DNA of 64,000 nucleotides from an uncultured Gammaproteobacteria bacterium (GCA_964523375.1 CAZFYG010000003.1:35471-99470), one strand, 5' to 3'; shown: positions 5,572 to 62,196, counted from the first letter of the stretch. Numbers and translations are program-made. The notes: generated from the letters alone by a model not told the origin.

Positions 5572-5574
5572 CTG

Positions 5575-9673: not shown

Positions 9674-9727
9674 TGATTGTGTATAATGTTCACCTATTTT
9701 ATCAATCAATTAATACAAAAGGGAATA

Positions 9728-10900: not shown

Positions 10901-10903
10901 AAA

Positions 10904-42505: not shown

Positions 42506-42510
42506 AGTTT

Positions 42511-43395
42511 CTAGAGGTTGAGATAGAGTTTCTTGAGACGTATATTCATGGGACCTGGTTGATCTGAGTTACCTATAGACCTTCCATCAATATTAATAAC
42601 GTGTCTCAATGAACCAAGCGTACCAGTAATAAAAGCCTCATCCGCTGAGTAAACGTCAACAAGGGAAAAATTCTTCTCATAAACAGGTATATTATTTTCT
42701 TTACATACATGAATTACTTTTTTTCTAGTTATTCCATTCATACAATAATCACCCGAGCTCGTAAAGACCTCACCATTTTTTATAATAAAAAAATTACATG
42801 AATTAGTAGTATTTACAAAACCATGAGGATCAAGCATCAATGCCTCATCGGCTCCCATTTTTTTTGCTTGAATGCAGGCAAGTATACAATTTAATTTAGA
42901 ATGGCTATTTAACTTTGGGTCCTGACTCATTGGCAAGCCTCTAACCTGAGGGACTGTGGCTAATTTAATACCATCATTGGATTTTGCATCATCAGAATGC
43001 TCCAAGATAATAACCAAACTAGGACCATCTTTTGACAAATCAGGTTGCTGAAAAGGCTTTACTTTTTCACCTCTCGTAACCATAAGTCTTGCATGCGCAT
43101 TATCAACCATTTTGTTTGCTACTCTAGTTTCCTCTAAGGCACCAATAACTTCACTTTTTGACATTGATAGGTTTATATCTATTGCTTTTAGACCCTCAAA
43201 CAAACGATCAATGTGTTCATCTAAAAAAATCCAATTACCATCAACAAGCCTTAACCCCTCCCATATACCATCACCCATTAAGAAACCGCTATCATAAACA
43301 GATATTTTTGCATCTTGTCTTTTATACAAAGAACCATTTATGTAAATTAAGATGTCTTTATTTTTATTTAAATGTGATTGGATGTGATTAGCCAT
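42511..43395 (-). CDS. Class IV (fold-type IV) PLP aminotransferase, BCAT/D-AAT-like
   Basis: SVYDSGFLMGDGIWEG, DPKLNSHSK, EALMLD, GITR, ADEAFITGT. Confidence 0.9.
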   Translation of the reverse strand: MANHIQSHLNKNKDILIYINGSLYKRQDAKISVYDSGFLMGDGIWEGLRLVDGNWIFLDEHIDRLFEGLKAIDINLSMSKSEVIGALEETRVANKMVDNAHARLMVTRGEKVKPFQQPDLSKDGPSLVIILEHSDDAKSNDGIKLATVPQVRGLPMSQDPKLNSHSKLNCILACIQAKKMGADEALMLDPHGFVNTTNSCNFFIIKNGEVFTSSGDYCMNGITRKKVIHVCKENNIPVYEKNFSLVDVYSADEAFITGTLGSLRHVINIDGRSIGNSDQPGPMNIRLKKLYLNL

Positions 43396-43494
43396 TTTTA
43401 AAACAGTTATTAGTTAATACTTATTACATCTTTTGCTAACGGTCTAGTCAACATAAATTAGTAAAAATTATTTGTAATATGCTTTAATTAAAAA

Positions 43495-44370
43495 ATGAAA
43501 AAACTATCTACCTTTTTAGTTATTTGTTGGTATTTACTTTCCTATTTCATTTCAATAATAGTTTTAGATCAAATAAGCATAATTGAAAATATATGGATAA
43601 GAATATTAATTGCTCATATTGTGGCCACGATTATTATATATGTGGGTAGTTTGGTGCATAATAATTCAAGTCTCTATGATCCATTTTGGTCTGTTGCGCC
43701 TATCCCTATTACTTTTTACTTATTTTTTACTCCCGGACTAAGCAATATTACATGCTTGAATAAGTTATTTATTACTTTTCCTATTTTTATTTGGTCAGTG
43801 AGGCTAACTAGAAATTGGTTTATTTCCTGGGATGGCTTTAGTCATGAGGATTTTAGGTATATCAATCTTAAGAAGGGAAATAAACTAAAGCTTGAATTTA
43901 TCAATTTTACAGGAATCCATCTTATTCCAACTTTACAAGTCAATCTATCATTGGCCCCATTGTATTTTATACACAATAGTGTCGAGCTAAATGAAACTAA
44001 CTTCTTATTAATATTAGCAAGTATTTTTACTATGCTGGCTGTAGCTATAGAAACATTAGCAGATGAACAAATGAGGTTATTTAAAAAAGATAGATTGAAT
44101 GACGGTACCACCATGACTAAAGGTCTTTGGCATTATTCAAGACATCCAAATTACTTTGGTGAAGTTATGTTTTGGGTAGGAATTTATCTTATGGCTATAT
44201 TAACAACAGAAACGCCTACTTGGCTCCTAATAGCTCCAGTTTCTATGCTTATGTTATTTATTTTTATATCCTGTCCAATTATGGATAACAGAAGCTTGGA
44301 AAGAAGACATGACTACCAATCCTATATGACTAAGACCTCATCTCTTATTCCGTGGGTTCCTAAAAAATAG
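43495..44370 (+). CDS. DUF1295 (steroid 5-alpha-reductase-like) membrane protein
   Basis: NSSLYDPFWS, EDFRY, ADEQM, GLWHYSRHPNYFGE. Confidence 0.88.
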   Translation: MKKLSTFLVICWYLLSYFISIIVLDQISIIENIWIRILIAHIVATIIIYVGSLVHNNSSLYDPFWSVAPIPITFYLFFTPGLSNITCLNKLFITFPIFIWSVRLTRNWFISWDGFSHEDFRYINLKKGNKLKLEFINFTGIHLIPTLQVNLSLAPLYFIHNSVELNETNFLLILASIFTMLAVAIETLADEQMRLFKKDRLNDGTTMTKGLWHYSRHPNYFGEVMFWVGIYLMAILTTETPTWLLIAPVSMLMLFIFISCPIMDNRSLERRHDYQSYMTKTSSLIPWVPKK

Positions 44371-44372
44371 AC

Positions 44373-44401
44373 AAAAAAAAGCACCGACAAGCGGTGCTTT
44401 T
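44373..44401. terminator. Bidirectional intrinsic terminator between DUF1295 and the TonB receptor
   Basis: A8-GCACCG-ACAAG-CGGTGC-TTTT. Confidence 0.85.
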
Positions 44402-44416
44402 AAAGTCTAGATTAAA

Positions 44417-47119: not shown

Positions 47120-47270
47120 AATACTCCCCCTTGAGTTTAAAAATATTAATATTCAGCAAGCACTTTATGTACTCACAGCCTAATTTTGCACTGTTAATAA
47201 AGAATAGCAATAGTATTGTGCATAATTGCCCAACAAAATTTAGGTTAATAAAGTGGCTTTATTAATTTAT

Positions 47271-48227
47271 TTATGGTCTTAATTGCTGAGACTTTTCAGA
47301 CCGCAGATGTATGAAGAAGAAATAAGTTGCTACAGCACTAAGCAAATGCCATATTCCATGTGCTTGAAAAATGGAATCTGGATTACAGTTTGCATTATCA
47401 GGTGTACCTGTTAGCCAAATTGCAAAAGCAGACATATAAGCAAGCATCCCTAAAAAATACCATTTATAACTTCTTATGCCAGTTGGCTTTTTATCTGCCA
47501 ACAGGCCAGGCAGCCAAAATAGAAAAACCCACCAAAATGATTCTGGGTTGGCCAGTATATCGCCTATTGTTGTTCCAAAAAGAAACAATACTAAAAAGCC
47601 TACAAACCCAGATAAAAATCTATTAATAGGTGACCAGAATTTATATAAAAACTCTGATATAACCCAAAGACCGATAGAAGTTCCAAATAAATTAAAACCT
47701 ATGCCTAAATCCCAAGAGGTAAACCATCTGGCAACAGAGTAAATAATGACAATGGAGAAGTATGTTTTTATAAGTTTGGATGATGACCATCTACCCATTA
47801 ATGAGACGTTGTATAGCCATGGAAAAATAATATACATTATCATACTCAAGTTATCAGCCCACCCACCCCATTCTGTATTTGTTCCATGCATTAACATCGA
47901 ACCAGGGCCAAGCCACCATGCAGCAGATGCATATAAAATTGAGATTGGCGTTAAACCTATAAACTTATTATCAGGAGAAGTTTCTTCGTGTGATATAACC
48001 CAAAAAATATAAAGGCCAACAACCATAAAACCTAAATTGCTTAAAGTATTAACAGGTTCTCTAAATGCTCCGCTACTAACTCTTTCACACCATCTCGATG
48101 CTTCTCCAATTAGGCTAGTATCAGATGAGTTAATCAAACCTGATAACCCTAAAACATAAAATATAATTAAAAATATTATCGAGATAACAAGTGCAATATT
48201 GAATGGAGAATATTTTATATTTAACAT
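47271..48227 (-). CDS. Alkaline ceramidase-like (CREST superfamily) membrane hydrolase (start moved to ATG 48227)
   Basis: WCER...EPVNTLSNL, GSMLMHG (SxxxH), HGIWH (HxxxH), multiple TM helices. Confidence 0.78.
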   Translation of the reverse strand: MLNIKYSPFNIALVISIIFLIIFYVLGLSGLINSSDTSLIGEASRWCERVSSGAFREPVNTLSNLGFMVVGLYIFWVISHEETSPDNKFIGLTPISILYASAAWWLGPGSMLMHGTNTEWGGWADNLSMIMYIIFPWLYNVSLMGRWSSSKLIKTYFSIVIIYSVARWFTSWDLGIGFNLFGTSIGLWVISEFLYKFWSPINRFLSGFVGFLVLFLFGTTIGDILANPESFWWVFLFWLPGLLADKKPTGIRSYKWYFLGMLAYMSAFAIWLTGTPDNANCNPDSIFQAHGIWHLLSAVATYFFFIHLRSEKSQQLRP

Positions 48228-48312
48228 TAAAATCCTTTTTTTAGAGATATTAAATTTATATCTAAATAATATACAAATTTTTAATACATACAATAGAGCA
48301 ATATTTAAAAAC

Positions 48313-48338
48313 AAAAAAGGGCCCGTGAAGAGCCCTTT
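48313..48338 (-). terminator. Intrinsic terminator after etfA
   Basis: AAAGGGC / GCCCTTT stem with a T run on the minus strand. Confidence 0.7.
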
Positions 48339-48353
48339 GTTAGATTTATAGTT

Positions 48354-49283
48354 TTATAGTTGGGAATCTAATTCTGGCAAAGCATTAAATAAATCTGCCA
48401 CTAAACCATAATCTGCAACTTGAAAAATAGGCGCATCCTCATCTTTATTTATTGCAACGATAACCTTAGAGTCCTTCATGCCTGCTAAATGCTGTATAGC
48501 TCCAGAAATACCTACAGCTATATATAAATCAGGCGCAACAATTTTACCTGTCTGACCAACCTGGTAGTCATTTGGAACAAATCCTGCGTCTACTGCTGCC
48601 CTTGATGCTCCAACAGCTGCTCCAAGTTTATCGGCAATCGAATCAAGCAAATGGAAATTCTCACCTGACTGCATCCCTCTTCCACCAGAAATAATAATAT
48701 CTGCCGCAGTAAGCTCAGGCCTATCGCTTTCTGCAATTTCTTCAGAAACAAATTGGCTTATATTTAATGAATCTACAGGATTAACATTAACAACTTCTAC
48801 ATCAGCGCTATTTTGAGTAACAGCGTCAAATGCTGTTGATCTTACGGTTATAACTTTCAATGCATCATTTGACTTTACAGTTGCTATACAGCTACCAGCG
48901 TAGATTGGTCTTTTAAAGGTATCTGCAGATTCAACAGAAATAATATCTGATATTTGTTGTGTATCCAGCTTTGCAGCAACTCTAGGCATTAAGTTTTTAC
49001 CAAATGTCGTAGCAGGAGCTAAAATATTTGAATAATCTGCAGATAAAGACACAACCAATGCTGATACATCTTCCGCTATTTGATTTAAATATAACGGATC
49101 ATTTGAATGGATAATTTTAGAAACACCATCAACCTGCTGACACTCAGTAACAACACTTTCACAATCTGAACCAGCAACTAAAATATGAATATCAACACCA
49201 AGTTGAGTTGCAGCCGCAACAGTATTAAGTGTTGAACCCTTTAAGTTATTATTATCATGTTCTGCTATTACTAATGTACTCAT
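48354..49283 (-). CDS. etfA: Electron transfer flavoprotein alpha subunit
   Basis: [45 protein letters not shown]. Confidence 0.97.
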
Positions 49284-50032
49284 GAGATCACCTTTGCTTC
49301 ATTTTTAAGTTTATCAACCAATTGATCGACTGAGTCAACCATAATTCCTGCTGCTCTGGCTTCGGGCAGTTCTACTTTGAGTAATTCGGTTCTTGGCGAT
49401 GCATCAACACCAGTATCTACCAAAGGAATTACTTTTAGTTCCTTCTTTTTTGCTTTCATAATATTTGGAAGAGATGCGTATCTAGGTTCATTCAAACGCA
49501 AGTCTGTTGTCACAATTGCAGGAGTTGTTAACTTCAATGTTTGAAGACCACCATCAATTTCTCTTGTTACTGATACTGTTCCATCTTCTATGATAAGTTC
49601 AGATGCATTAGTGGCTTGAGGTAAATCAAGAATCGCTCCAAGCATTTGCCCAGTTTGGTTGTTATCACCATCAATTGCTTGTTTACCAAGAATAATAAGG
49701 TCAGGTGATTCATCATTAACAACTTTAGCTAAAACTTTTGCTAGAGCCAAGGGTTCAAGCAATGAATCACATTCAACCAGAATTGCTCTATCGGCACCAA
49801 GTGCTAAAGCAGTTCTTAATTGTTCTTGAGATTCTGTTTTGCCTATAGTAATAGCAATAACCTCAGAAGCCTTGCCTGACTCTTTAACTCTAACGGCCTC
49901 TTCTAACGCTATTTCACAAAAAGGATTTACAGACATTTTTACATTATTTAAATCAACATTTGAATTGTCACCTAGAGGTCTAACTTTTACGTTATAGTCA
50001 ACCACTCTTTTAATTGGAACTAGTATTTTCAT
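49280..50032 (-). CDS. etfB: Electron transfer flavoprotein beta subunit
   Basis: [42 protein letters not shown]. Confidence 0.97.
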
Positions 50033-50081
50033 ATTTAACTCTTAATTTAGGGGTTTATCGGGCTATAATTGTAATGTCTTT

Positions 50082-50096
50082 TGTAAACATTTTACA
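50082..50096. promoter_or_regulatory. HexR/RccR-type box in the divergent etfB / ETF-QO promoter region
   Basis: TGTAA-ACATT-TTACA. Confidence 0.55.
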
Positions 50097-50115
50097 GCAA
50101 TAAGTGAGGTTAATT

Positions 50116-51747
50116 TTGGAAAGAGATGTAATGGAGTATGACGTGGTTGTAGTAGGTGGTGGGCCATCTGGTTTATCAGCTGCAATTAAATTTGCACAGT
50201 TAAATAAAGAAAATGGTACTAGTTATTCAATTTGTCTTTTAGAGAAAGGTTCAGAAGTTGGAGCACACATTCTTTCGGGTAATGTATTTCAACCAAATGC
50301 TCTTGATGAGTTGATACCTGATTGGAAAGAGAAAAATGCACCATTAAATATTCCTGTTAAAAAAGATAAATTACTTTTTTTATTAAATAAGTTTTCTATA
50401 CCAGTGCCTGCATTTGTGATGCCTCCAATGAACAATCATGGTAATTATGTAATTAGCCTTGGAAATCTTTGCAGATGGCTGGCTGAGCAAGCAGAAAATC
50501 TAGGGGTTGAAATATTCCCTGGCTTCCCTGCAAGTAAATTAATCTACGAAGATGAAAAAGTAGTTGGAGTTCAAACAGGTGATATGGGTATTTCTGCTAG
50601 TGGCGATATTAAACCAGGCCATGAACCAGGAATAATTATTAAAGCTAAATATACTGTCCTAAGCGAAGGTTGCAGAGGACATCTTGGCAAAGAAGTTATA
50701 AATAAATTCAACCTTTCGGATGGCAAAGACCCCCAGCATTACGGCATAGGATTTAAAGAGGTATGGAAATTACAAGAAGGACTTCACGAGCCGGGACTAG
50801 TAATGCATACCAATGGTTGGCCTACTCCATTTGATACACCATCAGGCTCTTATTTATATCATGGAGAAAATAATGAGGCATATGTTGGATATGTAGTTCC
50901 ATTAGATTATAAAAACCCATCAATGAGTCCATTTGATGAGTTCCAGAAATGGAAAACCCATCCATCTATTAAAAAATATTTACAAGGCGGCGAAAGACTT
51001 TCTTATGGAGCGAGAGCTCTTATAAAAGGTGGCCTGCAGTCATTGCCAAAAATGGAGTTCCCAGGCGGGCTTCTTACTGGTGACAATGCAGGAACGCTAA
51101 ATTTTTCAAAAATAAAAGGTTCCCATACTGCTATGAAATCAGGATTGATAGCTGGGGAACATATTTTTGAAAATATCAATAATGACATTAAAACAGACAT
51201 TACATATGACGATAGAATACTTAGTTCTTGGATATACACAGAGCTTTATAAGTCTAGAAATTTTGGTCCTATATTTCATAAATTTGGAGCACTGATTGGC
51301 GCTTTTTTAAATGCATTAGATCAGTTTATATTTAGAGGAAAGTTACCTTTCACATTAAACAATCCAACGCCTGATCATGAGTGCTTAAAAAAATCATCTG
51401 AAGTAAATAAAATAGAATACCCAAAACCAGATGGTGTGTTTTCTTTTGACAAGCTTTCGTCTGTCTATCTATCCAATACAAATCATGAGGAAGACCAGCC
51501 ATGCCATCTTCAATTAAAAGACCCATCTATACCAATATCTGTAAATTTACCTATGTATGATGAGCCGGCTCAAAGATACTGCCCTGCAGGCGTTTATGAG
51601 GTTGTTAACAAGGAAGGTGAGGATAGATTTGTTATTAATGCACAAAACTGTGTTCATTGTAAAACTTGTGACATAAAAGACCCGTCCCAAAATATCCAAT
51701 GGGTTACACCAGAGGGACCTGGTGGGCCAAACTATCCAAATATGTAA
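50116..51747 (+). CDS. ETF:ubiquinone oxidoreductase (start moved to TTG 50116 after RBS GAGG)
   Basis: DVVVVGGGPSG, GAHILSG, KIKGSH, 4Fe-4S RYCPAG...NCVHCKTCDIKDP. Confidence 0.95.
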   Translation: MERDVMEYDVVVVGGGPSGLSAAIKFAQLNKENGTSYSICLLEKGSEVGAHILSGNVFQPNALDELIPDWKEKNAPLNIPVKKDKLLFLLNKFSIPVPAFVMPPMNNHGNYVISLGNLCRWLAEQAENLGVEIFPGFPASKLIYEDEKVVGVQTGDMGISASGDIKPGHEPGIIIKAKYTVLSEGCRGHLGKEVINKFNLSDGKDPQHYGIGFKEVWKLQEGLHEPGLVMHTNGWPTPFDTPSGSYLYHGENNEAYVGYVVPLDYKNPSMSPFDEFQKWKTHPSIKKYLQGGERLSYGARALIKGGLQSLPKMEFPGGLLTGDNAGTLNFSKIKGSHTAMKSGLIAGEHIFENINNDIKTDITYDDRILSSWIYTELYKSRNFGPIFHKFGALIGAFLNALDQFIFRGKLPFTLNNPTPDHECLKKSSEVNKIEYPKPDGVFSFDKLSSVYLSNTNHEEDQPCHLQLKDPSIPISVNLPMYDEPAQRYCPAGVYEVVNKEGEDRFVINAQNCVHCKTCDIKDPSQNIQWVTPEGPGGPNYPNM

Positions 51748-51786
51748 TTTAATTATAAATAAACCAAAAATGAATGGAGAATGAAT

Positions 51787-53559
51787 ATGAAAAACAATAA
51801 ACCTTTAATTTTAATAGTTGTTATTACATGCGTTAATTTATTGTTGTGGACAACATCCATGAATAATAAAGAAGAATCTTTGATAGATGCCGAGTTTGAA
51901 AACTATTTAGCGGAATCATGGGAGCAAGGATTAGCTGATTCACCCATATATGCATCAATGCTTGGTGATAAAAGATTCAATACTGACATTGTTTCTAACT
52001 CTATTAGTGAAATTGAACAAAGAAAACTAGAAACCATTGAATCATATAGTGAATTTAAAACATTCAATATCGAAGATTTATCTGAAGGGAATAAATTAAA
52101 TTACATGATCTTAGATCAAGATTTTAGTCTTGCTGTTGAATCACATAAATATCCCGAACAGTATATGAATTTAAATCAAAGAGGTGGAATTCAGTCGTTC
52201 TATGAGACCGGATCTCGCATGGTCTTTAACTCATATCAAGACTACAAGGATTGGCTTACAAGATTAACTAAATACGTTACAAACATTAATAATGCTAATA
52301 ATAACTACAGAGATGGTTTAGAGCTAGGATATACACAACCTAAACACATAACAACATATGTGCTTGAGCAAATCGAATCAATGATAGCGGCAGATGTTAA
52401 TATAAATCCCTATTTAAAAGTTTTTAAAGAAGCATCCCTGGAAGTAGTTACCTCCCAGCAAAAGGATGAATTAATATTAAGCGCAAAGGAGTTAATTACA
52501 AATTCATTAAATCCAGCCTATTCTGAATTGGCAGAATTTTTAAGAAATGAATATATTCCAAATTCAAGAGACTCAATTGGTATTAAAGATGTTCCAAATG
52601 GAAGTGAATGGTATGAATATCTTGCAAGATACCATACAACCACAAATCTAACCCCTGATCAGATTCATGAAATTGGTCTAAATGAAATTAAGCGCATAAG
52701 AGCTGAAATGGAAGAAATTATCGCATCAGTAAATTGGAATGGTGACTTTAACTCTTTCTTGAATTTTCTAAGAACAGATAAGCGCTTCTATTATGATAAT
52801 GCAGATGATCTTTTTGATGCATATCTGATAATGTCAAAAAAAATTGATCCTCTCTTACCCAAACTTTTTAAAGATTTTCAAAAAGCTCCGTATGGTGTGA
52901 CAGAGATACCAATGGAATCAGCTCCATATACGACTACTGCTTATTACAATCCTCCTAGTAAAGGTAGGCCTGGTTATTACTATGTTAATTTGTATAAACC
53001 TGAATCAAGACCTACATATGAGATACCTGTTCTAAGTGTTCATGAAGCTGTCCCAGGTCATCACTTTCAAATCTCTATAGCTCAAGAAATGGAAAATGTT
53101 CCTGAATTTAGAAAGCACCAGTCTTTTACATCCTTTGTTGAGGGTTGGGCTTTATACAGTGAAGAGCTTGGACAATACATGGGGCTTTATGATGATCCGT
53201 ACGATAAGTTTGGACAGCTGACCTATGATATGTGGAGAGCGATTAGATTAGTAGTTGATACAGGTATGCACTATAAGGATTGGACGCGTGATGATGCCAT
53301 TAACTTGTTTGTAAATAATACTGCTAAATCTATTTTAGATATAGAAAATGAAGTTGATAGATACATAGCTTGGCCTGGGCAAGCTCTAGCATACAAGATC
53401 GGTCAATTAAAAATTCTTGAACTAAGAACAAAAGCTGAAATTGAATTAGGCGAAAGCTATGATATTAAAGACTTTCATTATGAAGTTTTAAAAAGAGGTT
53501 CTGTACCTCTTTCTGTTTTAGAAACTTATATAAATGAATGGATAGAGTCTGAGAAGTAG
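51787..53559 (+). CDS. DUF885 family protein
   Basis: N-terminal hydrophobic segment, YHTTT, HEAVPGHHFQ, EGWALYSE, RAIRLVVDTG, PGQALAYKIG; RBS TGGAGA. Confidence 0.9.
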   Translation: MKNNKPLILIVVITCVNLLLWTTSMNNKEESLIDAEFENYLAESWEQGLADSPIYASMLGDKRFNTDIVSNSISEIEQRKLETIESYSEFKTFNIEDLSEGNKLNYMILDQDFSLAVESHKYPEQYMNLNQRGGIQSFYETGSRMVFNSYQDYKDWLTRLTKYVTNINNANNNYRDGLELGYTQPKHITTYVLEQIESMIAADVNINPYLKVFKEASLEVVTSQQKDELILSAKELITNSLNPAYSELAEFLRNEYIPNSRDSIGIKDVPNGSEWYEYLARYHTTTNLTPDQIHEIGLNEIKRIRAEMEEIIASVNWNGDFNSFLNFLRTDKRFYYDNADDLFDAYLIMSKKIDPLLPKLFKDFQKAPYGVTEIPMESAPYTTTAYYNPPSKGRPGYYYVNLYKPESRPTYEIPVLSVHEAVPGHHFQISIAQEMENVPEFRKHQSFTSFVEGWALYSEELGQYMGLYDDPYDKFGQLTYDMWRAIRLVVDTGMHYKDWTRDDAINLFVNNTAKSILDIENEVDRYIAWPGQALAYKIGQLKILELRTKAEIELGESYDIKDFHYEVLKRGSVPLSVLETYINEWIESEK

Positions 53560-53700
53560 TTATTTTTTTTGTTTGCATCTGTTGCTGCAATATATGACAT
53601 GCTCCCAGTCTCTTTCCCATTTTTTTCTCCATACAAAATCTAGTTTGCAAACTGGGCATGTTTTCTTCGGTAAATTAGATTTCTTAATTGATTTTGCCAA
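53560..53700 (-). CDS. DUF2256 family small cysteine-rich protein, 46 aa; missed by the ORF track
   Basis: Manual translation from [49 protein letters not shown]. Confidence 0.85.
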
Positions 53701-54226
53701 CTGGGACTTCCGTTTTAAATGAATTTATATATAAAGTATTATTTTTAGTAAAGCCCTCTTCTGTAGCAAAATTTAAAAATCGATAATACACATTTCTAGC
53801 AAGAAAACCCTCTATTTTTTTTGGTCTTACATTTACTATAGGTAGAAATACTCCATTTACTTGTTTGAGGTAAACGGGGTGACTGAAATCCAATTTAAAG
53901 GAATAATTAAAATTTGAGTGGAATGTTATATTTTTATTAGTGTCTATATCAAAATCTATAATCATATAAGGAGCTATTTCTACATTAACTGGTACCTTTT
54001 CTGAAGGAGTGACAAGAAAATAATCACCATCATCATTTCTTAAAACTTTTGAAAATAACTTTACAATTTTTCTATTTTTAATAAGAGATCCATTATAAAA
54101 CCAATCACCATTCCTATCTATTCTGATCTCTTGACCTTCACATAAATCAGGATTCCAAGAGTCAACTGGAGGAAAAATATCATCACTAAATTTTTTAATT
54201 TTATCTGTTAAATTTGAGATATTCAT
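53684..54226 (-). CDS. DUF1285 family protein
   Basis: [46 protein letters not shown]. Confidence 0.88.
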
Positions 54227-54812
54227 ATGTGGAAGTAAAAATTATAAAAAGGCCTATAAAACATAAAATTATTGAAAACAAAGATTTTATATAAATGTTG
54301 TTATAAATATTTACGTATTGAAATCTTTTTGACGTTAATAATATGCTTAAGAAAGAGAACCATAGGGTGGTAGATGCAGCAAAATAAAGTGGATAAATAT
54401 AAAAATATATTCCATTAAGACTTTTAGATAATATTGAAAATAGACTAACAAAAAAAATAAAAGCTTTTATGTTAAATAGGTTTGTAATAAACCCTACTAC
54501 AAAATTATTTTTTGAATTTTGACTAGATGATATTTTGTTATCATTAGAAATATACATTGAAGCTCCTATATAAAATATATAAGAACCTCCTATCATGCTA
54601 ATAAGAACTTTCAGTGCAGGGTAATTTAGTATAATTAGAGAGATACCGCTAGCAGCCAGAATGCAGTGTATTAAAATTCCTAATCCTATGCCGATGGCTG
54701 TAAATATACCCGCCCTCCTTCCAAAGGCAGAGCATTGTTTAATAATGATAGCCGTATCAGGGCCTGGGCTTGTTAAGGCAATAATGTAAGCAACTGTAGA
54801 AGACAGAAACAT
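54201..54812 (-). CDS. LysE/RhtB family translocator
   Basis: SPGPD motif, GFITNLFNIKA, TM pattern. Confidence 0.88.
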   Translation of the reverse strand: MFLSSTVAYIIALTSPGPDTAIIIKQCSAFGRRAGIFTAIGIGLGILIHCILAASGISLIILNYPALKVLISMIGGSYIFYIGASMYISNDNKISSSQNSKNNFVVGFITNLFNIKAFIFFVSLFSILSKSLNGIYFYIYPLYFAASTTLWFSFLSILLTSKRFQYVNIYNNIYIKSLFSIILCFIGLFIIFTSTYEYLKFNR

Positions 54813-55807
54813 TAAAGAATAACTCTTGGTTCTATCTCTAAATTGATATTAAAGTAATATTTAACCTTTGATTGAATGGCTTTAGCAAAGTTGATGACAT
54901 CTTGTTGCGACGCAATTCCGTTAGTTGTTAGAACTAAATTGTGTTTTTTTGATATAGAAACATTATGTGCTTCTGGTAGCTCATTTTTAATAAGTTGAAT
55001 TAATTTAGCAGCACCAACTTTAACAAGGTTATTTTCAAGCTCCCAGATGATTAATTCATTTAAATCAAAATGATCTGTTTTAATTGAATTGATATCTATA
55101 ATTGGATTTTTAAAAAAACTACCGGCATTTGGTTCAATCAATGGATTGGGTAATGCGGCCTCTCTAATTTCTGTAATAAGTTTGGATATGATCTGTGGGT
55201 TAAGAAATTTTTTATCAAGAGAAATGTCATTAATTTTTTTGTGTAGGGATCCATATGAAAGGCAGAGTTTTTTTTCGAGATTTGATTTAAATTCAATATG
55301 GGTAATGATCATATTTGAGCCCTTAAAGAGAGAGTCTCTATAACCAAACTTGCATTCACTTGAGCTAAACGAGTTAAAACTTCCATCCATTAAGTCAAAA
55401 AAATAAACTCTATGAATTAAAGGTTCAACATCTACACCATAAGCTCCAATATTTTGAATTGGAGAAGCACCGACTGAGCCAGGTATTAGCGAAAGGTTTT
55501 CGAAGCCATAGATATTATTATTTACTGCATACTGAACTAAATCATTCCAATTTACAGATGAGCCTACTCTGATCAAATCATTGTTTTTTTCAATTGATTT
55601 AAAGTTTAAAGAAATCACTAATCCACTATATCTATCTGGTGGGACCAGATTAGTGCCCTCGCCAAGAATAAAATATTTAATTTTTTTAGATTTAATGAAA
55701 TCAAATAGGTGTGGAAGCTCGTCCAGCTTATTAATACAAACACCATAATCTGAAACAGAGTTTATTTTTAAAGAGTTATGAATTTTATAATTCTCTTCAA
55801 GATTCAT
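54812..55807 (-). CDS. murB: UDP-N-acetylenolpyruvoylglucosamine reductase
   Basis: LGEGTN, LIPGSVGASPIQNIGAYG, FGYRDS, NAGSFFKNP, LEIEP. Confidence 0.95.
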   Translation of the reverse strand: MNLEENYKIHNSLKINSVSDYGVCINKLDELPHLFDFIKSKKIKYFILGEGTNLVPPDRYSGLVISLNFKSIEKNNDLIRVGSSVNWNDLVQYAVNNNIYGFENLSLIPGSVGASPIQNIGAYGVDVEPLIHRVYFFDLMDGSFNSFSSSECKFGYRDSLFKGSNMIITHIEFKSNLEKKLCLSYGSLHKKINDISLDKKFLNPQIISKLITEIREAALPNPLIEPNAGSFFKNPIIDINSIKTDHFDLNELIIWELENNLVKVGAAKLIQLIKNELPEAHNVSISKKHNLVLTTNGIASQQDVINFAKAIQSKVKYYFNINLEIEPRVIL

Positions 55808-56522
55808 TATTAATATATTTTATAGCAGTTTTCACATCGTCTTCAGTATCAATGCCTGGTGGAATATTGATATTAAATTTTGAAATTTTAATTTTATATC
55901 CATTGTCAAGAAATCTAAGCTGCTCTAACTTTCTTTCAATTTCATTTAGAGTGGGTTTAAGGGATACAAGTTTTTGGAGAGTAGCCATGGAGTATCCATA
56001 TATACCAATATGTTGGTAGTATGATGCGCCATCAACATATTCTATGTTTCTTACAAAATCTTTAGCAAATGATTGATCGTCAATAATTGCTTTAACGCAG
56101 TTGGGATTATCTATAATTTCTCTATTAACTATTTTATGTGCAGCTGTAACAATATTGGAAGTATTCATCTTAAAACTATCAATTAGTTCTTTAACCACCT
56201 CTTTAGGCATAAATGGCTCATCTCCCTGTAAATTTATTATCAAAGTATCTTTGTCTAGGTTTAGCTTTTTAGCTGCTTCAAAAACTCTGTCAGTTCCGGA
56301 TATATGATCTTTATCTGTAATAATTACATTAGAAGTTAAGGATTGAATATGATTCTTAATAATATCTGAGTCAGTTGCTACAAAGACATTAGGAGTGCAT
56401 AAAAGAGCATTCTCGTAGACTCTATGTATTAATGATTTGCCTGAGATGTCAACTAAGGGTTTATTTTTAAGCCTTGTTGAACCAATTCTTGATGGAATGA
56501 TAATAACTGTATTTAAAGACAT
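55797..56522 (-). CDS. kdsB: CMP-KDO synthetase
   Basis: IIPSRIGSTRLKNKPL, SGTDR, INLQGDEP, QHIGIYGY, LEQLRFL. Confidence 0.96.
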   Translation of the reverse strand: MSLNTVIIIPSRIGSTRLKNKPLVDISGKSLIHRVYENALLCTPNVFVATDSDIIKNHIQSLTSNVIITDKDHISGTDRVFEAAKKLNLDKDTLIINLQGDEPFMPKEVVKELIDSFKMNTSNIVTAAHKIVNREIIDNPNCVKAIIDDQSFAKDFVRNIEYVDGASYYQHIGIYGYSMATLQKLVSLKPTLNEIERKLEQLRFLDNGYKIKISKFNINIPPGIDTEDDVKTAIKYINNES

Positions 56523-56528
56523 TTTTAG

Positions 56529-59288
56529 TTAGGTTATTTTTTTAAGCCTATTATCCAATTCATTAATAAATTGGTTGGATAGATCTGCCTCGACTGCCAG
56601 ATACCATATTTTATTATTATTAAAATGCTTACATTTAGATGCATCTTTTTCAGTCATTAAAATTGGATGATGATCTAAAAAATGCAAATCAGTTGTGATG
56701 TATTTATGGTGATCTGGGAATGGGTGCTTTATATGGTCAAAACCAAGCCTGCTTAATGTATCAAAAAATCTTCCAGGGTTTCCAAGTCCTGCCACAGCAT
56801 GAACTTCTTTATGCATAGGCCATTGATCAACGGGATACGATTTACCACTATTTAAATGGACAAATTTAGATGGGCTGATATTCATAAGAATTTCTTCGCC
56901 CTCAGTGGGCCCACTGTTATTAATAACAAAATCTGCATCTTTTAATCTTTTTTTTGATTCCCTTAGGGGGCCAGCAGGGAAAACTAAATTGTTACCAAAC
57001 CTTCTTTTTCCATCAATAACAATTATTTCTATATCTCGCTTTAAATTGTAATGTTGAAGACCATCATCCGTTATAACAACATCACAATCATGATTTGAAA
57101 CAAGAGTCTCAACAGCCCTGACCCTATCTCTGTCTAGGTAAAAAGGGAGTCCTAATTTTGATAAAATTTGTGCCTCATCTCCAGTCGCTTTAACTGAAGA
57201 ATCTGATTCAACTTTCATTGTTTTTTTATAGTTACCGCCATAACCCCTGCTAACCAACCCTGGCTTGTAACCTAAATCTTTCAAACTTGATGCAATATAT
57301 TTTACGAGCGGGGTTTTACCTGTGCCACCGATTGTTAGGTTACCAACAATTACAACTGGGACATTCTTATTTAAAGTTGGTAAATTTTTAAGATACTTTC
57401 TTCTTCTTCTATTTGTTAAGAACTGTATAGCAAGAGAAAACGGATATAACAGATAGAGCCATAGGCTTTTCTTGTACCAACTATCAACAACAAAGCTAGA
57501 TGATTCTTGATTGTTATATTCAGGTACAAAGAGCTGTTTAGATTTTGACTGGATAGGAGTTTTATTACCATCATCCTCAAATTTATTTTTATACAAAGAT
57601 TTATAAAGGCCATCAAGCGCAATAAGCTCATCATGGGTACCTGTTTCAGAAATCATGCCTTCATCTAAAACGATAATTTTAGATGCATTTTCAATTGTCG
57701 ATAACCTATGGGCAATAACTATCGTAGTTCTATTAGTGATTAATTTTTCAAGAGCTTCTTGGACAACTAACTCAGACTCGCTATCTAATGCAGAAGTGGC
57801 TTCATCTAATATAATGATAGGTGAGTCTTTATAGAATGCTCTAGCAATGGCAAGTCTTTGTCTCTGACCTCCAGATAATAGAACGCCATCATCGCCAATT
57901 TCAGACTCAAAATTTTCAGGAAGGTTATTTATAAACTCAGAGCATCCGGCAAGTTTTGCAGAAGCTATAAGCTTATCGTTATCAATTACACCATCACCAT
58001 AAGCTATATTTTTTGCAATCGTATCATTGAAAAGTGTAGGCGACTGATTGACTATAGAGATAGAATCTCTCAAATGAGTTAGTGAGTAATCCTTTATAGA
58101 GACGCCATCGATTTTAATTTCACCTGATGAGTTTTCATAGAAACGAGGTATCAAATTAGCAATAGTTGACTTACCAGAACCAGATCTTCCAACTATAGCA
58201 ACGGTATCATGCTTATTAATATGAAAACTTATATTTGAAAGAATTTGCCCACCAGTTTCATAGGAAAATGAGACATCATTAAAGTCTATAACTCCATCTA
58301 ATTTACTATCCACATCGCCGGAATTATTTTCATTTGCCTCATCCAATTGATCAAATATCTCATTAGCAGCAGCAAGGCCTTTTTGAACAATAATATTTAT
58401 ATTTGATAATTGCCTGACTGGTTTTGCCATTAAACCAGCAGCAGTGAAAAATGCTACAAATGTCTCTGCATCTAAACTGATTCCAAGCTGCGAGCCAAGA
58501 GCAAAATATGCAACAAGAGAAAGAGATACAGAAACTAAAATTTGAATAATAGGAGTTGCTAAATTACCTGTAGCCTCCAGTTTAAGGTTTTGATTTTTAT
58601 TGGATGAATTGGCTTCTAGAAACCTTTCATTTTCATAATCTTGAGCATTAAATGATTTAATTTCTAAATGGCCATCAACAGCTTCAGAGGCAATGTGAGT
58701 AACGTCACCCATAGCGGTTTGTATTTTTTTTGCTAATTTTTTAAGTCGCTTACCTGCTATGTATACGATAAGAGCAATTAAAGGAATAGTTACTATTAAC
58801 AACAAGGTTAACTTGAAATTAAGATAGGACATATAAATAAATAAACCAACAAGAAGAAAGCCCTCTCTAACAAATGTTTTAACAGCACTAGAGGCAGCTG
58901 CTGAGACTTGTGTGGTTGTAAATGTAATCCTATTTATTAATTGTCCTGACTGATTTGAATCAAAGTAGGATTTTGGTAAGTCATGCAATTTTTGAAATAG
59001 CTCAGCCCTTAGATCATGAACAATACCAAAGCCCACTCTGGACATGAAATAGTTACCAATGAAGAATCCGAGACCCCTTCCAAATGCAATTCCAATTAGA
59101 GATAAGGCTAAAAGAGTATGGAGACCAGATTCTTCCGCATTTATAAAGCTAATAATTCTTCTAATCCATTCAACAGCGGCAATATCTGCAAATGCAAAAA
59201 CAATAAATCCTAATACACTTATTAAGAACGACCACTTGTATCTAAATGTGTAAGAAAGCAGTCTTCTGAAGCTATTTTTCTTTTTCAT
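56529..59288 (-). CDS. msbA/lpxK: Fusion of lipid A flippase MsbA (aa ~1-570) and tetraacyldisaccharide 4'-kinase LpxK (aa ~599-919)
   Basis: ABC motifs GRSGSGKS, LSGGQRQ, LDEATS, AHRL; LpxK motifs GNLTIGGTGKTP, SRGYGG, DDGLQH, GPLRE, TEKDA; single frame. Confidence 0.92.
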   Translation of the reverse strand: MKKKNSFRRLLSYTFRYKWSFLISVLGFIVFAFADIAAVEWIRRIISFINAEESGLHTLLALSLIGIAFGRGLGFFIGNYFMSRVGFGIVHDLRAELFQKLHDLPKSYFDSNQSGQLINRITFTTTQVSAAASSAVKTFVREGFLLVGLFIYMSYLNFKLTLLLIVTIPLIALIVYIAGKRLKKLAKKIQTAMGDVTHIASEAVDGHLEIKSFNAQDYENERFLEANSSNKNQNLKLEATGNLATPIIQILVSVSLSLVAYFALGSQLGISLDAETFVAFFTAAGLMAKPVRQLSNINIIVQKGLAAANEIFDQLDEANENNSGDVDSKLDGVIDFNDVSFSYETGGQILSNISFHINKHDTVAIVGRSGSGKSTIANLIPRFYENSSGEIKIDGVSIKDYSLTHLRDSISIVNQSPTLFNDTIAKNIAYGDGVIDNDKLIASAKLAGCSEFINNLPENFESEIGDDGVLLSGGQRQRLAIARAFYKDSPIIILDEATSALDSESELVVQEALEKLITNRTTIVIAHRLSTIENASKIIVLDEGMISETGTHDELIALDGLYKSLYKNKFEDDGNKTPIQSKSKQLFVPEYNNQESSSFVVDSWYKKSLWLYLLYPFSLAIQFLTNRRRRKYLKNLPTLNKNVPVVIVGNLTIGGTGKTPLVKYIASSLKDLGYKPGLVSRGYGGNYKKTMKVESDSSVKATGDEAQILSKLGLPFYLDRDRVRAVETLVSNHDCDVVITDDGLQHYNLKRDIEIIVIDGKRRFGNNLVFPAGPLRESKKRLKDADFVINNSGPTEGEEILMNISPSKFVHLNSGKSYPVDQWPMHKEVHAVAGLGNPGRFFDTLSRLGFDHIKHPFPDHHKYITTDLHFLDHHPILMTEKDASKCKHFNNNKIWYLAVEADLSNQFINELDNRLKKIT

Positions 59289-59689
59289 AATCTTATTGTT
59301 CTAATCTGAACCTGTGAGTATCCATTTTTATTCAATATATCCATCATTTCTACAACCCATTGATGATATGTATTCTCCTCAGCACTTAGTATTACTTTAT
59401 CAAATGTGCTATCTAAACTAAATACAAGCTCATTTATTAACTCCCTATCAGATATCGGCGCTGTTACTCCATTAATCAAAACTGTGCCATCAGACAGAAT
59501 AGAAATCTCATTGCTCTCTTTGACCACATTTGATGAAAATGATTCAGTTTTTGGGAGCTCTAATGAAAGGAACTGCGAATCTCCAACCTTGGAAGTAACT
59601 ACAAAAAATATTACTAGAAGAAAAACTATATCTATTAATGGGGTTATCTCTATGGAAAAATTAGAGTTATTTGTTTTTAAGAACTTCAT
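59285..59689 (-). CDS. exbD: ExbD/TolR family protein
   Basis: ITPLIDIVFLLVIFFVV TM helix with the conserved Asp. Confidence 0.88.
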   Translation of the reverse strand: MKFLKTNNSNFSIEITPLIDIVFLLVIFFVVTSKVGDSQFLSLELPKTESFSSNVVKESNEISILSDGTVLINGVTAPISDRELINELVFSLDSTFDKVILSAEENTYHQWVVEMMDILNKNGYSQVQIRTIRL

Positions 59690-60288
59690 TATTTATTTAT
59701 CACATCAATGAAATCAGATACTTCTGCTTGAAGGTTGATTAATAGATGTGAGATCTTTTGCTCAAAATACTTATGCATTACAAGACCTGGTACAGCTATA
59801 AAAAGACCAAAAGCTGTTGTTATGAGCGCCTGTGAGATTCCTTCAGCTAATACATCTGGATTTGCACCCGTTACTTCAGATAATCCAGTAAAGGCAGTAA
59901 TCATACCTACCACTGTTCCCAAAAGCCCCAATAGAGGGCTAATTGTAGCCAGAGTTCCTAGCATTGTTAAATTTCTATCAAGGAGATGTTTAACCTCGGA
60001 GGCTTTCTCTTCTATCTTAGATTCGAGGTTTTCTCTTTGAAGATCTTTATATTTAATACAATTTATCAACAAATATCCCAAAGATGAAAGCTGTGAAATT
60101 TCTTCAGATTGTCTCTGATTTAAAAGGTTTTTATTATAAAGATTAATAATTTGATTTTTTAGACCATGAGGAGAAACAAGTCTCAGCTGAAGAAACCACA
60201 ATCTTTCAATAGATATTGAAATAATTAATACTGAGCAGGCTAAAAGTGGCCACATAAAGGCACCACCAGCAATAATAAATTCACTCAT
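59689..60288 (-). CDS. exbB: MotA/TolQ/ExbB proton channel protein
   Basis: SPLLGLLGTVVGMI, GISQALITTAFGL. Confidence 0.88.
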   Translation of the reverse strand: MSEFIIAGGAFMWPLLACSVLIISISIERLWFLQLRLVSPHGLKNQIINLYNKNLLNQRQSEEISQLSSLGYLLINCIKYKDLQRENLESKIEEKASEVKHLLDRNLTMLGTLATISPLLGLLGTVVGMITAFTGLSEVTGANPDVLAEGISQALITTAFGLFIAVPGLVMHKYFEQKISHLLINLQAEVSDFIDVINK

Positions 60289-60956
60289 AATTCAATTAGC
60301 CCTCTATTATCTAAATAATATTTTCTATCTAAAATATTTACAAAATCATTATCATGAGTAGCAACAATTAATGCAACATCATTATTATTTGAGAGCTCTA
60401 GAACTAGGTTCTGTATGTTCAGTGCATTCTTTTTATCTAAATTTCCAGTTGGTTCGTCAAGAAATATATATTCTGGTTTATTAATCATAGCTCTAGCTAC
60501 CGCAACCCTTTGCTTTTCTCCTCCCGAGAGCTTCCAAGGTAAGTGATTTAACCTTTCGCTTAATCCAATAGATTTAGCTAAATCCCGCACTTTAATATCT
60601 AAATTTTGTAAATCGCCTTTTAATTTAAGAGGTAGAGCAATATTTTCATAGACTGTTAGATCTTCCAATAAATGATGATGCTGATAAACAAAACCAAAGT
60701 TGTTTAACCTTATTTTTGATTTTTGATTGGAAGTCAGATCATCCATAACCTCGTTGTTCAATTCAATTGAGCCCGATGACTGTTTATCTAATAGCGCAAG
60801 TAATTGAAGTAAGGTAGATTTACCAGATCCTGACTGACCTGATATAGCAACTGTATCACCTTTTTCCACTATTAAATTAAGGTTTTTTAGAACCTCAATT
60901 TCATACCCATCAATAGAATATGTTTTAGAAATATTTATAGCTTTTAAATTATTCAT
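60285..60956 (-). CDS. lolD: Lipoprotein-releasing ABC ATPase (start moved to ATG 60956)
   Basis: GQSGSGKST, GFVYQHHHLL, LSGGEKQR, DEPTGNLD. Confidence 0.92.
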   Translation of the reverse strand: MNNLKAINISKTYSIDGYEIEVLKNLNLIVEKGDTVAISGQSGSGKSTLLQLLALLDKQSSGSIELNNEVMDDLTSNQKSKIRLNNFGFVYQHHHLLEDLTVYENIALPLKLKGDLQNLDIKVRDLAKSIGLSERLNHLPWKLSGGEKQRVAVARAMINKPEYIFLDEPTGNLDKKNALNIQNLVLELSNNNDVALIVATHDNDFVNILDRKYYLDNRGLIEL

Positions 60957-62196
60957 GTCTAAGAATCTCAATAGGATCCAGCCTATTTACCCTGAGAGCT
61001 GGGATCAATGATGAAAATAGACTAAATATAAATGAAAGCAAGCATATAAAGAAAATTTGATTAAAATCTAAGTGATATGGAAAATAATTAATAAAATAAG
61101 CATCAAGCATGCCTCGAGCAGTTAATGACTCTAAGAAATTCACCAATGAATCTAAGTTAATTGTTATTAAAATACCAAAGAAAAGACCTGAAATAATACC
61201 TATAGAGCTTACAAGGATACCTTGATATACAAATATTTTTACCAACTGGCCATTATTTGCTCCAATTGTTTTAAGAATTCCAATCTCTCTCTCCTTGGAT
61301 TTTACAGTCATTATAATTGTAGAAAGAACAAGAATGGAGGCAACACCAATAATCAGAAATAGCATTAAACTTATTAATAATTTTTCAAATTTAATGGCCT
61401 CAAAAAGCGTTCCATGAGTTGTTTTCCAGGTTATTATCTCAAAAAAATTACCATTTAATAGATCGCCATCTATTGATTTAATAACATCTCTGGCAATAGT
61501 ATCAGCGCTAAATAAATCATCTGTTTTAATTCTTATTGATGAGGTTGTATTTTCACCTATCATCTTTATTTTTTGAGCAAGCTTGTGAGATATTAAAACA
61601 AGTGACTGGTCTAACTCTGATCTAAGCTCATACATACCTACAATTTTTACTTTTAAAGATTGAGGAAATGATCCTATGATTGTAGTTTTGATATCTGAGG
61701 TTGTGATATTCAAGGTATCGCCTATACCAACATCTAAATGAGCTGCAAGCCAAGTTCCAATAATGATTGAACTATCTTCTTTTAAATTATCTAGAGATCC
61801 TATAACCATATAGTCAGGGAGAATAGACATTGAAGGTTCAATGTCTTCATCAATACCAATAATACTTACACCTCGACCACCAGAACCTGAAGAAGCAAGA
61901 CCTTGAAGTTCTATATATGGGGATGAGCTTTTTATATTATCTAGTTTGTTTATATTGTCCACTAGCAACTGATAGTTATTAATTGTACTGTCTGATTTGA
62001 TTACAGCATGAGGAACTACACCAAGAATTCTATCCTGCAACTCTCTCTCAAAACCATTCATTACAGACATAACTATAATCAAGCTGCTAACACCAATAGA
62101 AAGGCCTAAAATTGCAAGAAATGAGGTAAATGAGAAGACCCCACCTCTATTAGATTTTAAATACCTAAAAGCTAGATTTAGTGAAAGCGAAGACAC
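60949..62196 (-). CDS. lolE: Lipoprotein-releasing ABC permease, LolC/LolE family (GTG start)
   Basis: SVMNGFERELQDRILG, KEREIGILKTIGA, four-TM MacB-type layout. Confidence 0.88.
   Translation of the reverse strand: MSSLSLNLAFRYLKSNRGGVFSFTSFLAILGLSIGVSSLIIVMSVMNGFERELQDRILGVVPHAVIKSDSTINNYQLLVDNINKLDNIKSSSPYIELQGLASSGSGGRGVSIIGIDEDIEPSMSILPDYMVIGSLDNLKEDSSIIIGTWLAAHLDVGIGDTLNITTSDIKTTIIGSFPQSLKVKIVGMYELRSELDQSLVLISHKLAQKIKMIGENTTSSIRIKTDDLFSADTIARDVIKSIDGDLLNGNFFEIITWKTTHGTLFEAIKFEKLLISLMLFLIIGVASILVLSTIIMTVKSKEREIGILKTIGANNGQLVKIFVYQGILVSSIGIISGLFFGILITINLDSLVNFLESLTARGMLDAYFINYFPYHLDFNQIFFICLLSFIFSLFSSLIPALRVNRLDPIEILRHE

Follow-up and report, generated by a model that had tools for sequence, protein, structure and literature searches.

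The window, as the 64,000-nucleotide stretch of DNA analysed here will be called (from an uncultured Gammaproteobacteria bacterium, GCA_964523375.1, CAZFYG010000003.1:35471-99470), carries on its minus strand a single open reading frame (ORF), msbA::lpxK, in which the gene for the lipid A flippase MsbA runs directly into that for the lipid A 4'-kinase LpxK (Table 1). MsbA occupies residues 6-571 of the product and is followed by a hydrophilic linker of 28 residues and by LpxK at residues ~599-919; by Pfam, ABC_membrane covers residues 22-287, ABC_tran 350-499 and LpxK 612-915. The MsbA part ends with F570 of the sequence ...LYKNKF, the codon of which lies at 57581-57579. A first-pass annotation, made from the sequence alone, had described an in-frame fusion with this junction and a product of about 103 kDa, and the ORF, the linker boundaries and the mass calculated from the sequence all agree with that description.

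Table 1. Positions, in the window, of the fused gene, its parts and the genes of the surrounding cluster
Feature	Position	Strand	Remarks
msbA::lpxK fused ORF, complete	56529..59288	-	919 aa, ATG start, 102.4 kDa computed
Stop codon of msbA::lpxK	56531-56529	-	
MsbA transmembrane (TM) domain, ~residues 1-320, six long helices	58329..59288	-	Pfam, AlphaFold2 (AF2) helices 18-315, Foldseek
MsbA nucleotide-binding domain (NBD), residues 321-570	57579..58328	-	Pfam ABC_tran, TIGR02203, sequence
Linker EDDGNKTPIQSKSKQLFVPEYNNQESSS, residues 571-598	57495..57578	-	Grand average of hydropathy (GRAVY) -1.59, isoelectric point (pI) 4.5
LpxK N-terminal membrane-association element, residues 599-634	57387..57494	-	AF2 helices 599-605, 609-613, 615-634
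LpxK kinase body, residues 635-919	56532..57386	-	Pfam LpxK, TIGR00682, alignment to PDB 4EHW/4EHX
exbD/tolR-like gene, directly upstream	59285..59689	-	Stop overlaps the fusion ATG by 4 nt
exbB/tolQ-like gene	59689..60288	-	
lolD, upstream in the same run	60285..60971	-	
lolCE-type permease, upstream in the same run	60949..62196	-	
kdsB (CMP-Kdo synthetase)	55797..56522	-	6 nt after the fusion stop; NF003952 228 bits, cut-off 193
murB, overlaps the kdsB end, last gene of the envelope cluster	54812..55807	-	

The frame also lacks a start for an independent lpxK, as had been claimed. A codon scan found no in-frame ATG, GTG or TTG between residues 565 and 669 of the fusion; TTG565 lies within MsbA without a Shine-Dalgarno (SD)-like sequence upstream, and TTG669 lies beyond the LpxK P-loop. 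The non-canonical in-frame codons between these two are ATC579, CTG613, ATA621, ATT647, ATC653 and ATT665. Additionally, no SD-like sequence precedes the LpxK N-terminus in the window, and no methionine is conserved in the SAR86 linkers or at the start of the LpxK N-terminal helix. On these three grounds an independent lpxK start is rejected. The window has no Rfam match to an RNA element.

The junction is reproduced in independent data. Contigs of three independent seawater metagenome runs, from different studies, span positions 57200-57900 with 0 mismatches and 0 gaps, and the 1.3-kb junction region is present in 20 or more seawater metagenome runs belonging to many studies (2016-2024; 94-100% of sampled 31-mers). 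A metatranscriptome contig spans 57325-57656, across the linker, without differences, and four RNA runs give patchy coverage of the whole fusion gene; this transcript evidence comes from Logan contigs, in which some DNA carry-over is possible. The assembly error that the first-pass annotation had allowed for, whether a mis-assembly, a sequencing indel or a chimeric contig joining two genes, has a negligible chance of being the explanation and is rejected, because the junction is identical in the independent contigs and present in so many runs, and because hundreds of independently assembled homologues, including those of a single-cell genome (L039) and of closed chromosomes, as well as 11 loci of the species sample described below, are fused; no point in its favour was found. 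With one frame, support in independent data, fused close relatives and components that are separate in other genomes, msbA::lpxK is, at the level of the gene, a true fusion.

One protein of the window's 90% cluster, P0127 (733 aa), was considered as a natural re-split variant and rejected, since it remains a fusion up to residue 727, beyond which a frameshift lies inside LpxK, away from the junction. It lies on L081, a 317-kb JGI contig that is 99% identical to the window, where positions 4001-6761 hold P0127 and a 195-aa remainder. An upstream aldehyde dehydrogenase on the same contig (1-1083) is likewise split in two. Because this neighbouring gene is also broken, the frame breaks of L081 are probably assembly indels rather than marks of pseudogenes.

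The MsbA and LpxK halves and the linker

The N-terminal part is predicted to be an MsbA-type ATP-binding cassette (ABC) half-transporter that flips lipid A or core-lipid A as a homodimer. It matches the NCBIfam model TIGR02203 (MsbA_lipidA) with 631.4 bits against a cut-off of 602, residues 6-571 covering model positions 1-571 of 572, and it falls below the cut-off of the enterobacterial-type MsbA model NF008381 (537 versus 867), as expected for a distant gammaproteobacterium. The ATPase motifs, namely Walker A (GRSGSGKST, 367-375), Q415, LSGGQ (471-475), ILDEATS (493-499, with Walker B D495/E496) and H527, are invariant in a 60-sequence alignment. The top 17 Foldseek matches are MsbA structures, the best of them 9BD6_A (E 3.6e-45, 46% identity, target-normalised TM-score 0.71), and the closest solved chain for this part is Pseudomonas aeruginosa MsbA at 46% identity. 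Residues 6-571 share the fold and all ATPase motifs of the Escherichia coli and P. aeruginosa proteins (PDB 9BD6, 5TV4, 6BPL). While the MsbA proteins that have been studied stop after the NBD, at ~580 aa, the fusion goes on into the linker and a kinase of 321 residues.

The C-terminal part appears from its sequence to be a complete LpxK, for which 4'-kinase activity is predicted. It matches PF02606 (LpxK) with 318.9 bits (cut-off 27, E 4.7e-95, model positions 3-327 of 328), TIGR00682 (lpxK) with 245.5 bits (cut-off 92, residues 612-907) and Aquifex aeolicus LpxK (4EHW/4EHX) with an E-value of 3e-26. The P-loop GNLTIGGTGKTP occupies residues 649-660 (window 57309-57344) and is followed by the motifs SRGY (680-683), GDE (703-705), DDGLQH (741-746), PAGPLRE (771-777) and PDHH (858-861). 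Residues that are important by mutagenesis in A. aeolicus LpxK were taken from a review (PMC6286764) and mapped by alignment, the 4EHW numbering being the native numbering plus 2. Specifically, K51/T52 correspond to K658/T659 of the window protein, R72 to R681, D99/E100 to D704/E705, D138/D139 to D741/D742, H143 to H746, R171 to R776 and H261 to H860/H861. All of the mapped catalytic and substrate residues are present, and they show little or no variation across 60 fused homologues; the earlier statement that the catalytic motifs of both halves are intact is upheld by this mapping. The fusion shares with the A. aeolicus and E. coli enzymes the P-loop, the Walker B DD, the equivalents of D99/E100 and H261, and the substrate Arg and His residues. 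In contrast, the known forms of LpxK have a free N-terminus a few residues before the N-terminal helix, which in the fusion is tied to the cytoplasmic NBD.

The N-terminal element of LpxK consists of aromatic and hydrophobic helices (FVVDSWYKKSLWLYLLYPFSLAIQFL) followed by the basic patch NRRRRKYLK, and in the alignment it corresponds to the N-terminal helix of A. aeolicus LpxK. Its conserved positions are W604, P616 and R627/R629. Residues 608-625 have an Eisenberg hydrophobic moment of 0.25 and a mean hydrophobicity of 0.61, near the values of the weaker MsbA TM helices. LpxK relies on its N-terminal helix and basic patch to associate with the membrane, and its activity depends on the helix (PMC6286764).

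The linker between the two halves is predicted to be disordered and flexible. In the AF2 model, based on a 60-sequence alignment, the predicted local distance difference test (pLDDT) is ~80-90 for the NBD and LpxK and <50 at residues 570-594, with coil at 571-598. The predicted template modelling score (pTM) of 0.49 means that MsbA and LpxK are not confidently placed relative to each other, and no solved PDB chain found by Foldseek spans both parts. The pLDDT is also <50 at residues 160-189 and 243-272, the periplasmic ends of TM3/TM4 and TM5/TM6; the sequence of both stretches is well conserved across the SAR86 relatives, and the low confidence there probably reflects ambiguity between the inward- and outward-facing states in a monomer prediction. 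Within SAR86, the column identity of the linker is 0.61, versus 0.85-0.93 in the domains, although its ends are conserved (FED... and ...VPEY/F..SS). Among 308 fused proteins, the linker is 18-50 aa long (median 26 in SAR86, 33 elsewhere). Compared with the domains, it has more Ser, Pro, Asp, Glu and Lys and less Leu, Ile, Phe and Gly. The predicted tryptic peptides FEDDGNK and QLFVPEYNNQESSSFVVDSWYK cross its boundaries with MsbA and LpxK, respectively.

A methionine occurs within the last 12 linker residues in 38 of the 308 linkers. One of these, the fused linker of L001, ends in ...YPGAMNASTL, with the Met 7 residues before the LpxK core and helix, at the position of the lpxK start in split relatives. 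This Met may be a relic of an lpxK start.

Distribution and origin of the fusion

The fusion is conserved and widespread. The window belongs to a SAR86-cluster bacterium. The members of its fusion protein's 90% cluster are labelled "SAR86 cluster bacterium", and the best 120 homologues among 5.8 billion proteins are all fusions of 919-921 aa with the same domains and 77-99% identity, drawn from ENA, JGI, NCBI and Logan on many contigs. The possibility, raised in the first-pass annotation, that the close relatives might all be split is at odds with this result. Proteins that combine ABC_membrane, ABC_tran and LpxK domains also occur at greater distance. When 1.84 billion representatives of 50%-identity clusters were searched exhaustively with HMMER, at least 15 more full-length fusions came to light (33-49% identity, 912-1146 aa), and the three domains were present in 10/10 of those tested. 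A profile of the distant fusions returned at least 120 more (933-1031 aa), with labels that include Pseudomonadales bacterium, Ca. Azotimanducaceae and Pseudomonadota; several of these lie on contigs of 2.6-6.5 Mb. At 33-50% identity, fusions are found in the marine Gammaproteobacteria Ca. Azotimanducaceae, K189A and unclassified Pseudomonadales. In the databases the full fusions are named plain "MsbA" and fragments "tetraacyldisaccharide 4'-kinase", across hundreds of clusters. One of the distant fusions, P0191 (1146 aa), has a tail of ~185 residues after LpxK (residues ~961-1146) that is of low complexity, with abundant Ala, Glu, Lys and Pro, and without a Pfam match.

The arrangement of the two genes was also classified in a species scan with an LpxK-only profile and one genome per GTDB species, in which the 80 gammaproteobacterial loci among the matches listed are a sample and not a census; locus classes were set with our own hidden Markov models on stop-to-stop frames. 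Eleven of the 80 loci are fused, all of them from uncultured organisms: a SAR86 single-cell genome, two Ca. Azotimanducaceae (one a closed chromosome of 4.29 Mb), the K189A clade and unclassified Pseudomonadales or Gammaproteobacteria bins. The genes are split, with msbA directly upstream of lpxK, at 25 loci (Halieaceae, Porticoccaceae, Zhongshania, Pseudohongiella, Methylophaga, Thiothrix and others), and no msbA lies within 4 kb at 44 (Pseudomonas, Methylobacter, Marinobacterium, Neptuniibacter, Gilvimarinus and Cellvibrio). The assertion that msbA and lpxK are normally adjacent separate genes holds, then, for 25 of the 69 unfused loci in this sample and fails for the other 44.

Trees of the two proteins (neighbour-joining (NJ), Kimura distances, 58 taxa, 568 MsbA and 311 LpxK columns) place the fusions in several groups. 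A SAR86 fused clade, comprising the window, P0017, the single-cell genome, P0151, P0149 and P0377, has 98% bootstrap support in the concatenated alignment and reaches down to 48-49% identity, which indicates that the fused state has long been kept. Group A (Azotimanducaceae_1, K189A, MED690, P0338 and others) has 100% support and group B (the closed Azotimanducaceae genome, SB06xx bins, P0155/57/60 and others) 98%, and the two are united in 33% of replicates. Three further fusions, P0154, P0159 and P0165, are placed with weak support among split Chromatiales/Thiotrichales-like lineages. Neither an all-fused clade nor a union of the three groups without split lineages was recovered in any of 100 bootstraps, and a single origin of all fusions is thus unsupported by these trees. 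The sequences suggest that the fusion was either gained several times or undone several times, two histories that simple NJ trees do not separate. Overall, the fusion is real, fixed across deep SAR86 diversity and recurrent in other marine Gammaproteobacteria.

The split relatives suggest how the genes may have been joined. In the 25 split loci, the end of msbA either overlaps the lpxK start (d = -1 or -4) or is separated from it by 0-50 nt. MsbA extends 1-20 residues past its last conserved motif, and LpxK begins 2-7 residues ahead of the conserved "L-v-x-A-W-Y" N-terminal helix. With so close a boundary, losing the msbA stop suffices to join the frames where the phase permits. The ancestral cluster would have had the order exbB-like/exbD-like/msbA/lpxK/kdsB with such an overlapping or abutting boundary; loss of the msbA stop codon would have put both genes into one frame, after which the boundary would have grown into a linker and the lpxK start codon would have been lost. 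In the 11 fused loci this boundary stretch is 27-38 residues long and cannot be aligned between clades.

The envelope gene cluster and the rest of the window

The fusion lies in a compact run of genes on the same strand, in the order lolCE, lolD, exbB/tolQ-like, exbD/tolR-like, msbA::lpxK, kdsB and murB, with overlaps of 1-11 nt or a gap of 6 nt (Table 1). By tblastn, the order exbB-like/exbD-like/[msbA]/lpxK/kdsB/(murB) is kept in fused, split and unlinked genomes, and in Pseudomonas and others msbA is missing from its place in the exbB-exbD-lpxK-kdsB cluster. Matches to 'lolD' within fused or split loci were cross-matches to the MsbA NBD and were ignored. Family scans of the 64-kb window detected no waaA, lpxL, lpxM or other lipid A or core gene besides those of the cluster. 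Among the matches listed in the species scan, the exbB/tolQ-exbD/tolR-like pair stands immediately upstream of (msbA-)lpxK-kdsB at 41/44 unlinked, 19/25 split and 9/11 fused loci; the pair scores far below the ExbB/TolQ equivalog cut-offs. We know of no role for this persistent pairing of proton-motive-force motor genes with lipid A genes.

The window, with a G+C content of 29-36%, contains a second fused gene at 753-2618 (-), which encodes a 621-aa protein with HisD at residues 33-420 (E 1e-143) and IGPD at residues 460-603 (E 7e-52); hisG is directly upstream (2618-3484) and a hisH-like glutamine amidotransferase downstream (184-756). A GAPDH-family ORF at 12085-13587 (+), of 500 aa, has Pfam domains that start only at residue 149, and it has either an N-terminal extension of ~148 aa without a family match or an over-extended ORF start. 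The region 41780-48314 (-) encodes a sulfotransferase-domain protein (41780-42505), a TonB-dependent receptor (44417-47119) and a ceramidase-family protein (47271-48314). Genes for ETF alpha/beta and ETF-QO occur at 48354-51747 and those for two acyl-CoA dehydrogenases at 9677-11998. The lipid-related and uptake genes of the window fit the lipid-catabolising lifestyle that has been proposed for SAR86 (PMC11582366). The ORFs at 51781-53559 (+) and 53684-54226 (-) had no NCBIfam match, and those at 35709-37199 (+), 33735-34127 (+) and 41252-41773 (-) had no Pfam match; these no-match ORFs range from 130 to 592 aa.

Function of the fused protein and its meaning

MsbA is a homodimeric half-transporter with its NBDs in the cytoplasm, and LpxK works at the cytoplasmic face of the inner membrane. 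From the general dimensions of ABC exporters, an extended linker of ~26 or more residues would let the kinase reach the membrane beside the transporter. The best-supported reading, which we regard as probable, is that the fusion is a bifunctional inner-membrane protein whose tether provides co-localisation and dosage. The MsbA C-terminus would continue through a flexible linker of ~26-28 residues into LpxK, and, since MsbA is a homodimer, each flippase dimer would carry two LpxK domains if the product is uncleaved, as the first-pass annotation had foreseen. The linker would let the LpxK N-terminal helix and basic patch lie on the cytoplasmic membrane face beside the transporter, and there the tethered kinase would phosphorylate tetraacyl-disaccharide-1-phosphate to lipid IVA. 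The fusion would fix the kinase:flippase dosage at 1:1 and keep the last indispensable synthetic step of lipid A beside its exporter. Equal dosage and permanent proximity are certain consequences of an uncleaved fusion; the geometry of the tether and any selective benefit we infer. In a model of the E. coli pathway there are ~2 LpxK per MsbA and LpxK is flux-controlling (PMC4412817), so that a fixed 1:1 ratio would be a real change. Additionally, in an uncleaved product the N-terminal segment of LpxK would be flanked by the NBD and by an ATP-using domain, with both ends in the cytoplasm, and could therefore not cross the membrane once; it would lie in-plane or re-entrant, in agreement with the view from the crystal structure.

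Several points weigh against this reading. The uncleaved 102-kDa polypeptide is presumed, and continuity of the transcript does not establish one product. The related lineages Halieaceae, Porticoccaceae, Zhongshania and Pseudohongiella get by with split genes, and many Gammaproteobacteria keep msbA away from lpxK; tethering may accordingly bring little or no advantage. In the canonical pathway, LpxK is not the step just before flipping. It rejects Kdo (3-deoxy-D-manno-octulosonic acid)-containing substrates (PMC6286764). The lack of linker conservation between clades, together with the low AF2 confidence in the mutual placement of the modules, points to no specific MsbA-LpxK interface. The hydrophobic moment of the LpxK N-terminal segment gives no clear amphipathic helix, and an in-plane and a spanning helix cannot be separated by sequence alone. 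Finally, a second, stand-alone lpxK or msbA may exist elsewhere in these genomes.

The main and strong rival, less probable than a functional tether but a distinct possibility, is a neutral fusion. Here the loss of a stop codon between overlapping, co-transcribed genes would have been tolerated, the halves would work as if apart with no benefit from the tether, and the fusion would persist since re-splitting takes a stop codon plus a fresh start preceded by a ribosome-binding site. The overlapping or abutting stop and start in the split relatives make the mutation an easy one, and at least three well-supported fused clades plus scattered singletons, with no all-fused clade in 100 bootstraps, are as expected for a cheap recurrent event. 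The linker, unconserved and predicted to be disordered, is also in keeping with neutrality, and the HisD-IGPD fusion in the same window and the 1-11 nt gene overlaps fit a streamlined genome. However, both halves are undecayed over deep divergence (48-49% within SAR86, and in two other large clades), the linker length stays within a narrow band, and some fusions come from non-streamlined genomes of 4-6.5 Mb. These points do not prove a benefit, and a neutral fusion differs from a functional tether only on whether the tether matters.

That MsbA-LpxK forms a physical synthesis-export unit, in which the kinase feeds or gates the flippase or round which other late lipid A enzymes gather (the first-pass annotation had hinted at a lipid A assembly/export complex), is rather unlikely, and a direct coupling or metabolon, in which LpxK would hand lipid IVA or a minimal lipid A to MsbA or regulate it so that export is gated by 4'-phosphorylation, seems less likely still. 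In favour of coupling, LpxK is the last absolutely required step, E. coli surviving by the export of lipid IVA (PMC6286764), LpxK controls flux in the pathway model (PMC4412817), and the fusion ensures proximity and a 1:1 stoichiometry. With kdsB only 6 nt downstream, however, Kdo is presumably still made and added after the LpxK step, and WaaA must act afterwards because LpxK rejects Kdo-containing substrates. Kdo addition and any late acylation would thus lie between the activities of LpxK and MsbA, and the fusion alone implies no direct hand-over. The suggestion in the first-pass annotation that a simplified lipid A is flipped soon after 4'-phosphorylation is unsupported, as WaaA and any late acyltransferases would still intervene. 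The unconserved linker, for which disorder and no interface are predicted, also argues against coupling; none of waaA, lpxL and lpxM lies within the 64-kb window.

It is very improbable that two proteins are made, either by cleavage in the linker or by non-canonical internal initiation that yields a free LpxK. An exposed, disordered linker would be a natural protease target, in-frame ATC579, CTG613 and ATA621 are available, and the linkers with a late Met, L001 among them, could be taken in the same sense. Against this stand the absence of an ATG, GTG or TTG codon, of an SD-like sequence and of a conserved Met described above, together with the absence of a conserved cleavage motif, and starts at CTG613 or ATA621 would cut off part of the helix needed for activity.

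The tethered arrangement has partial parallels in known systems. PCAT1 (PDB 6V9Z) is among the fold matches of the transporter part. Peptidase-containing ABC transporters (PCATs) have a type IV ABC exporter core with an attached cytoplasmic catalytic domain tied to the cargo, a logic like that of the fusion. In PCATs the catalytic domain sits at the N-terminus, is docked on the transporter and processes the cargo immediately prior to export, whereas LpxK is C-terminal, hangs on a floppy linker and acts several steps ahead of the flipped molecule. The E. coli msbA-lpxK operon and the gammaproteobacterial exbB-exbD-msbA-lpxK-kdsB cluster have the gene order and neighbours of the fusion, but the operon encodes two proteins from two independently translated genes, while the single frame of the fusion enforces a 1:1 ratio. 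A precedent for the lineage-specific fusion of neighbouring lipid A pathway genes is lpxC/fabZ in Bacteroidetes, Chlorobi and Verrucomicrobia (PMC3087551); it joins two soluble enzymes at the branch point of lipid A and fatty-acid synthesis, whereas MsbA-LpxK joins an enzyme to a membrane exporter.

A literature search found no description of a fused MsbA-LpxK protein, in line with the first-pass remark that the fusion was uncharacterised; the matches were the E. coli msbA-lpxK operon, lpxC/fabZ fusions and waaA-lpxK clusters. The lpxC/fabZ report notes waaA-lpxK clustering and no msbA-lpxK fusion (PMC3087551), and the description of the first SAR86 isolate makes no mention of the fusion (PMC11582366). 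What is new is the covalent arrangement, which is undescribed, both component proteins being already known. The architecture is probably already listed in domain-architecture resources.

Most Gram-negative bacteria depend on MsbA and LpxK for life, and both proteins are targets for antibiotics. The fusion bears on the question of a spatial organisation, around the flippase, of the lipid A synthesis steps that take place at the membrane, and it is a ready natural construct for structural work on both proteins together. A long-maintained covalent protein would show that a strict 1:1 dosage of kinase to flippase is viable, and the tie between the LpxK N-terminus and a cytoplasmic domain would constrain the membrane topology of LpxK. 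There is also a gap in annotation, in that thousands of sequences named only 'MsbA' hold the sole visible LpxK; because of these plain labels, automated pathway reconstruction may wrongly call lpxK missing in abundant ocean bacteria. If the fusion is neutral, it would be a clean example of the recurrent fusion of overlapping operon genes. If MsbA and LpxK do form a physical synthesis-export unit, the fusion would provide the first evidence from nature that the Raetz pathway arranges its membrane steps around MsbA and, as a by-product, a natural topology experiment in which the LpxK N-terminal helix is non-spanning.

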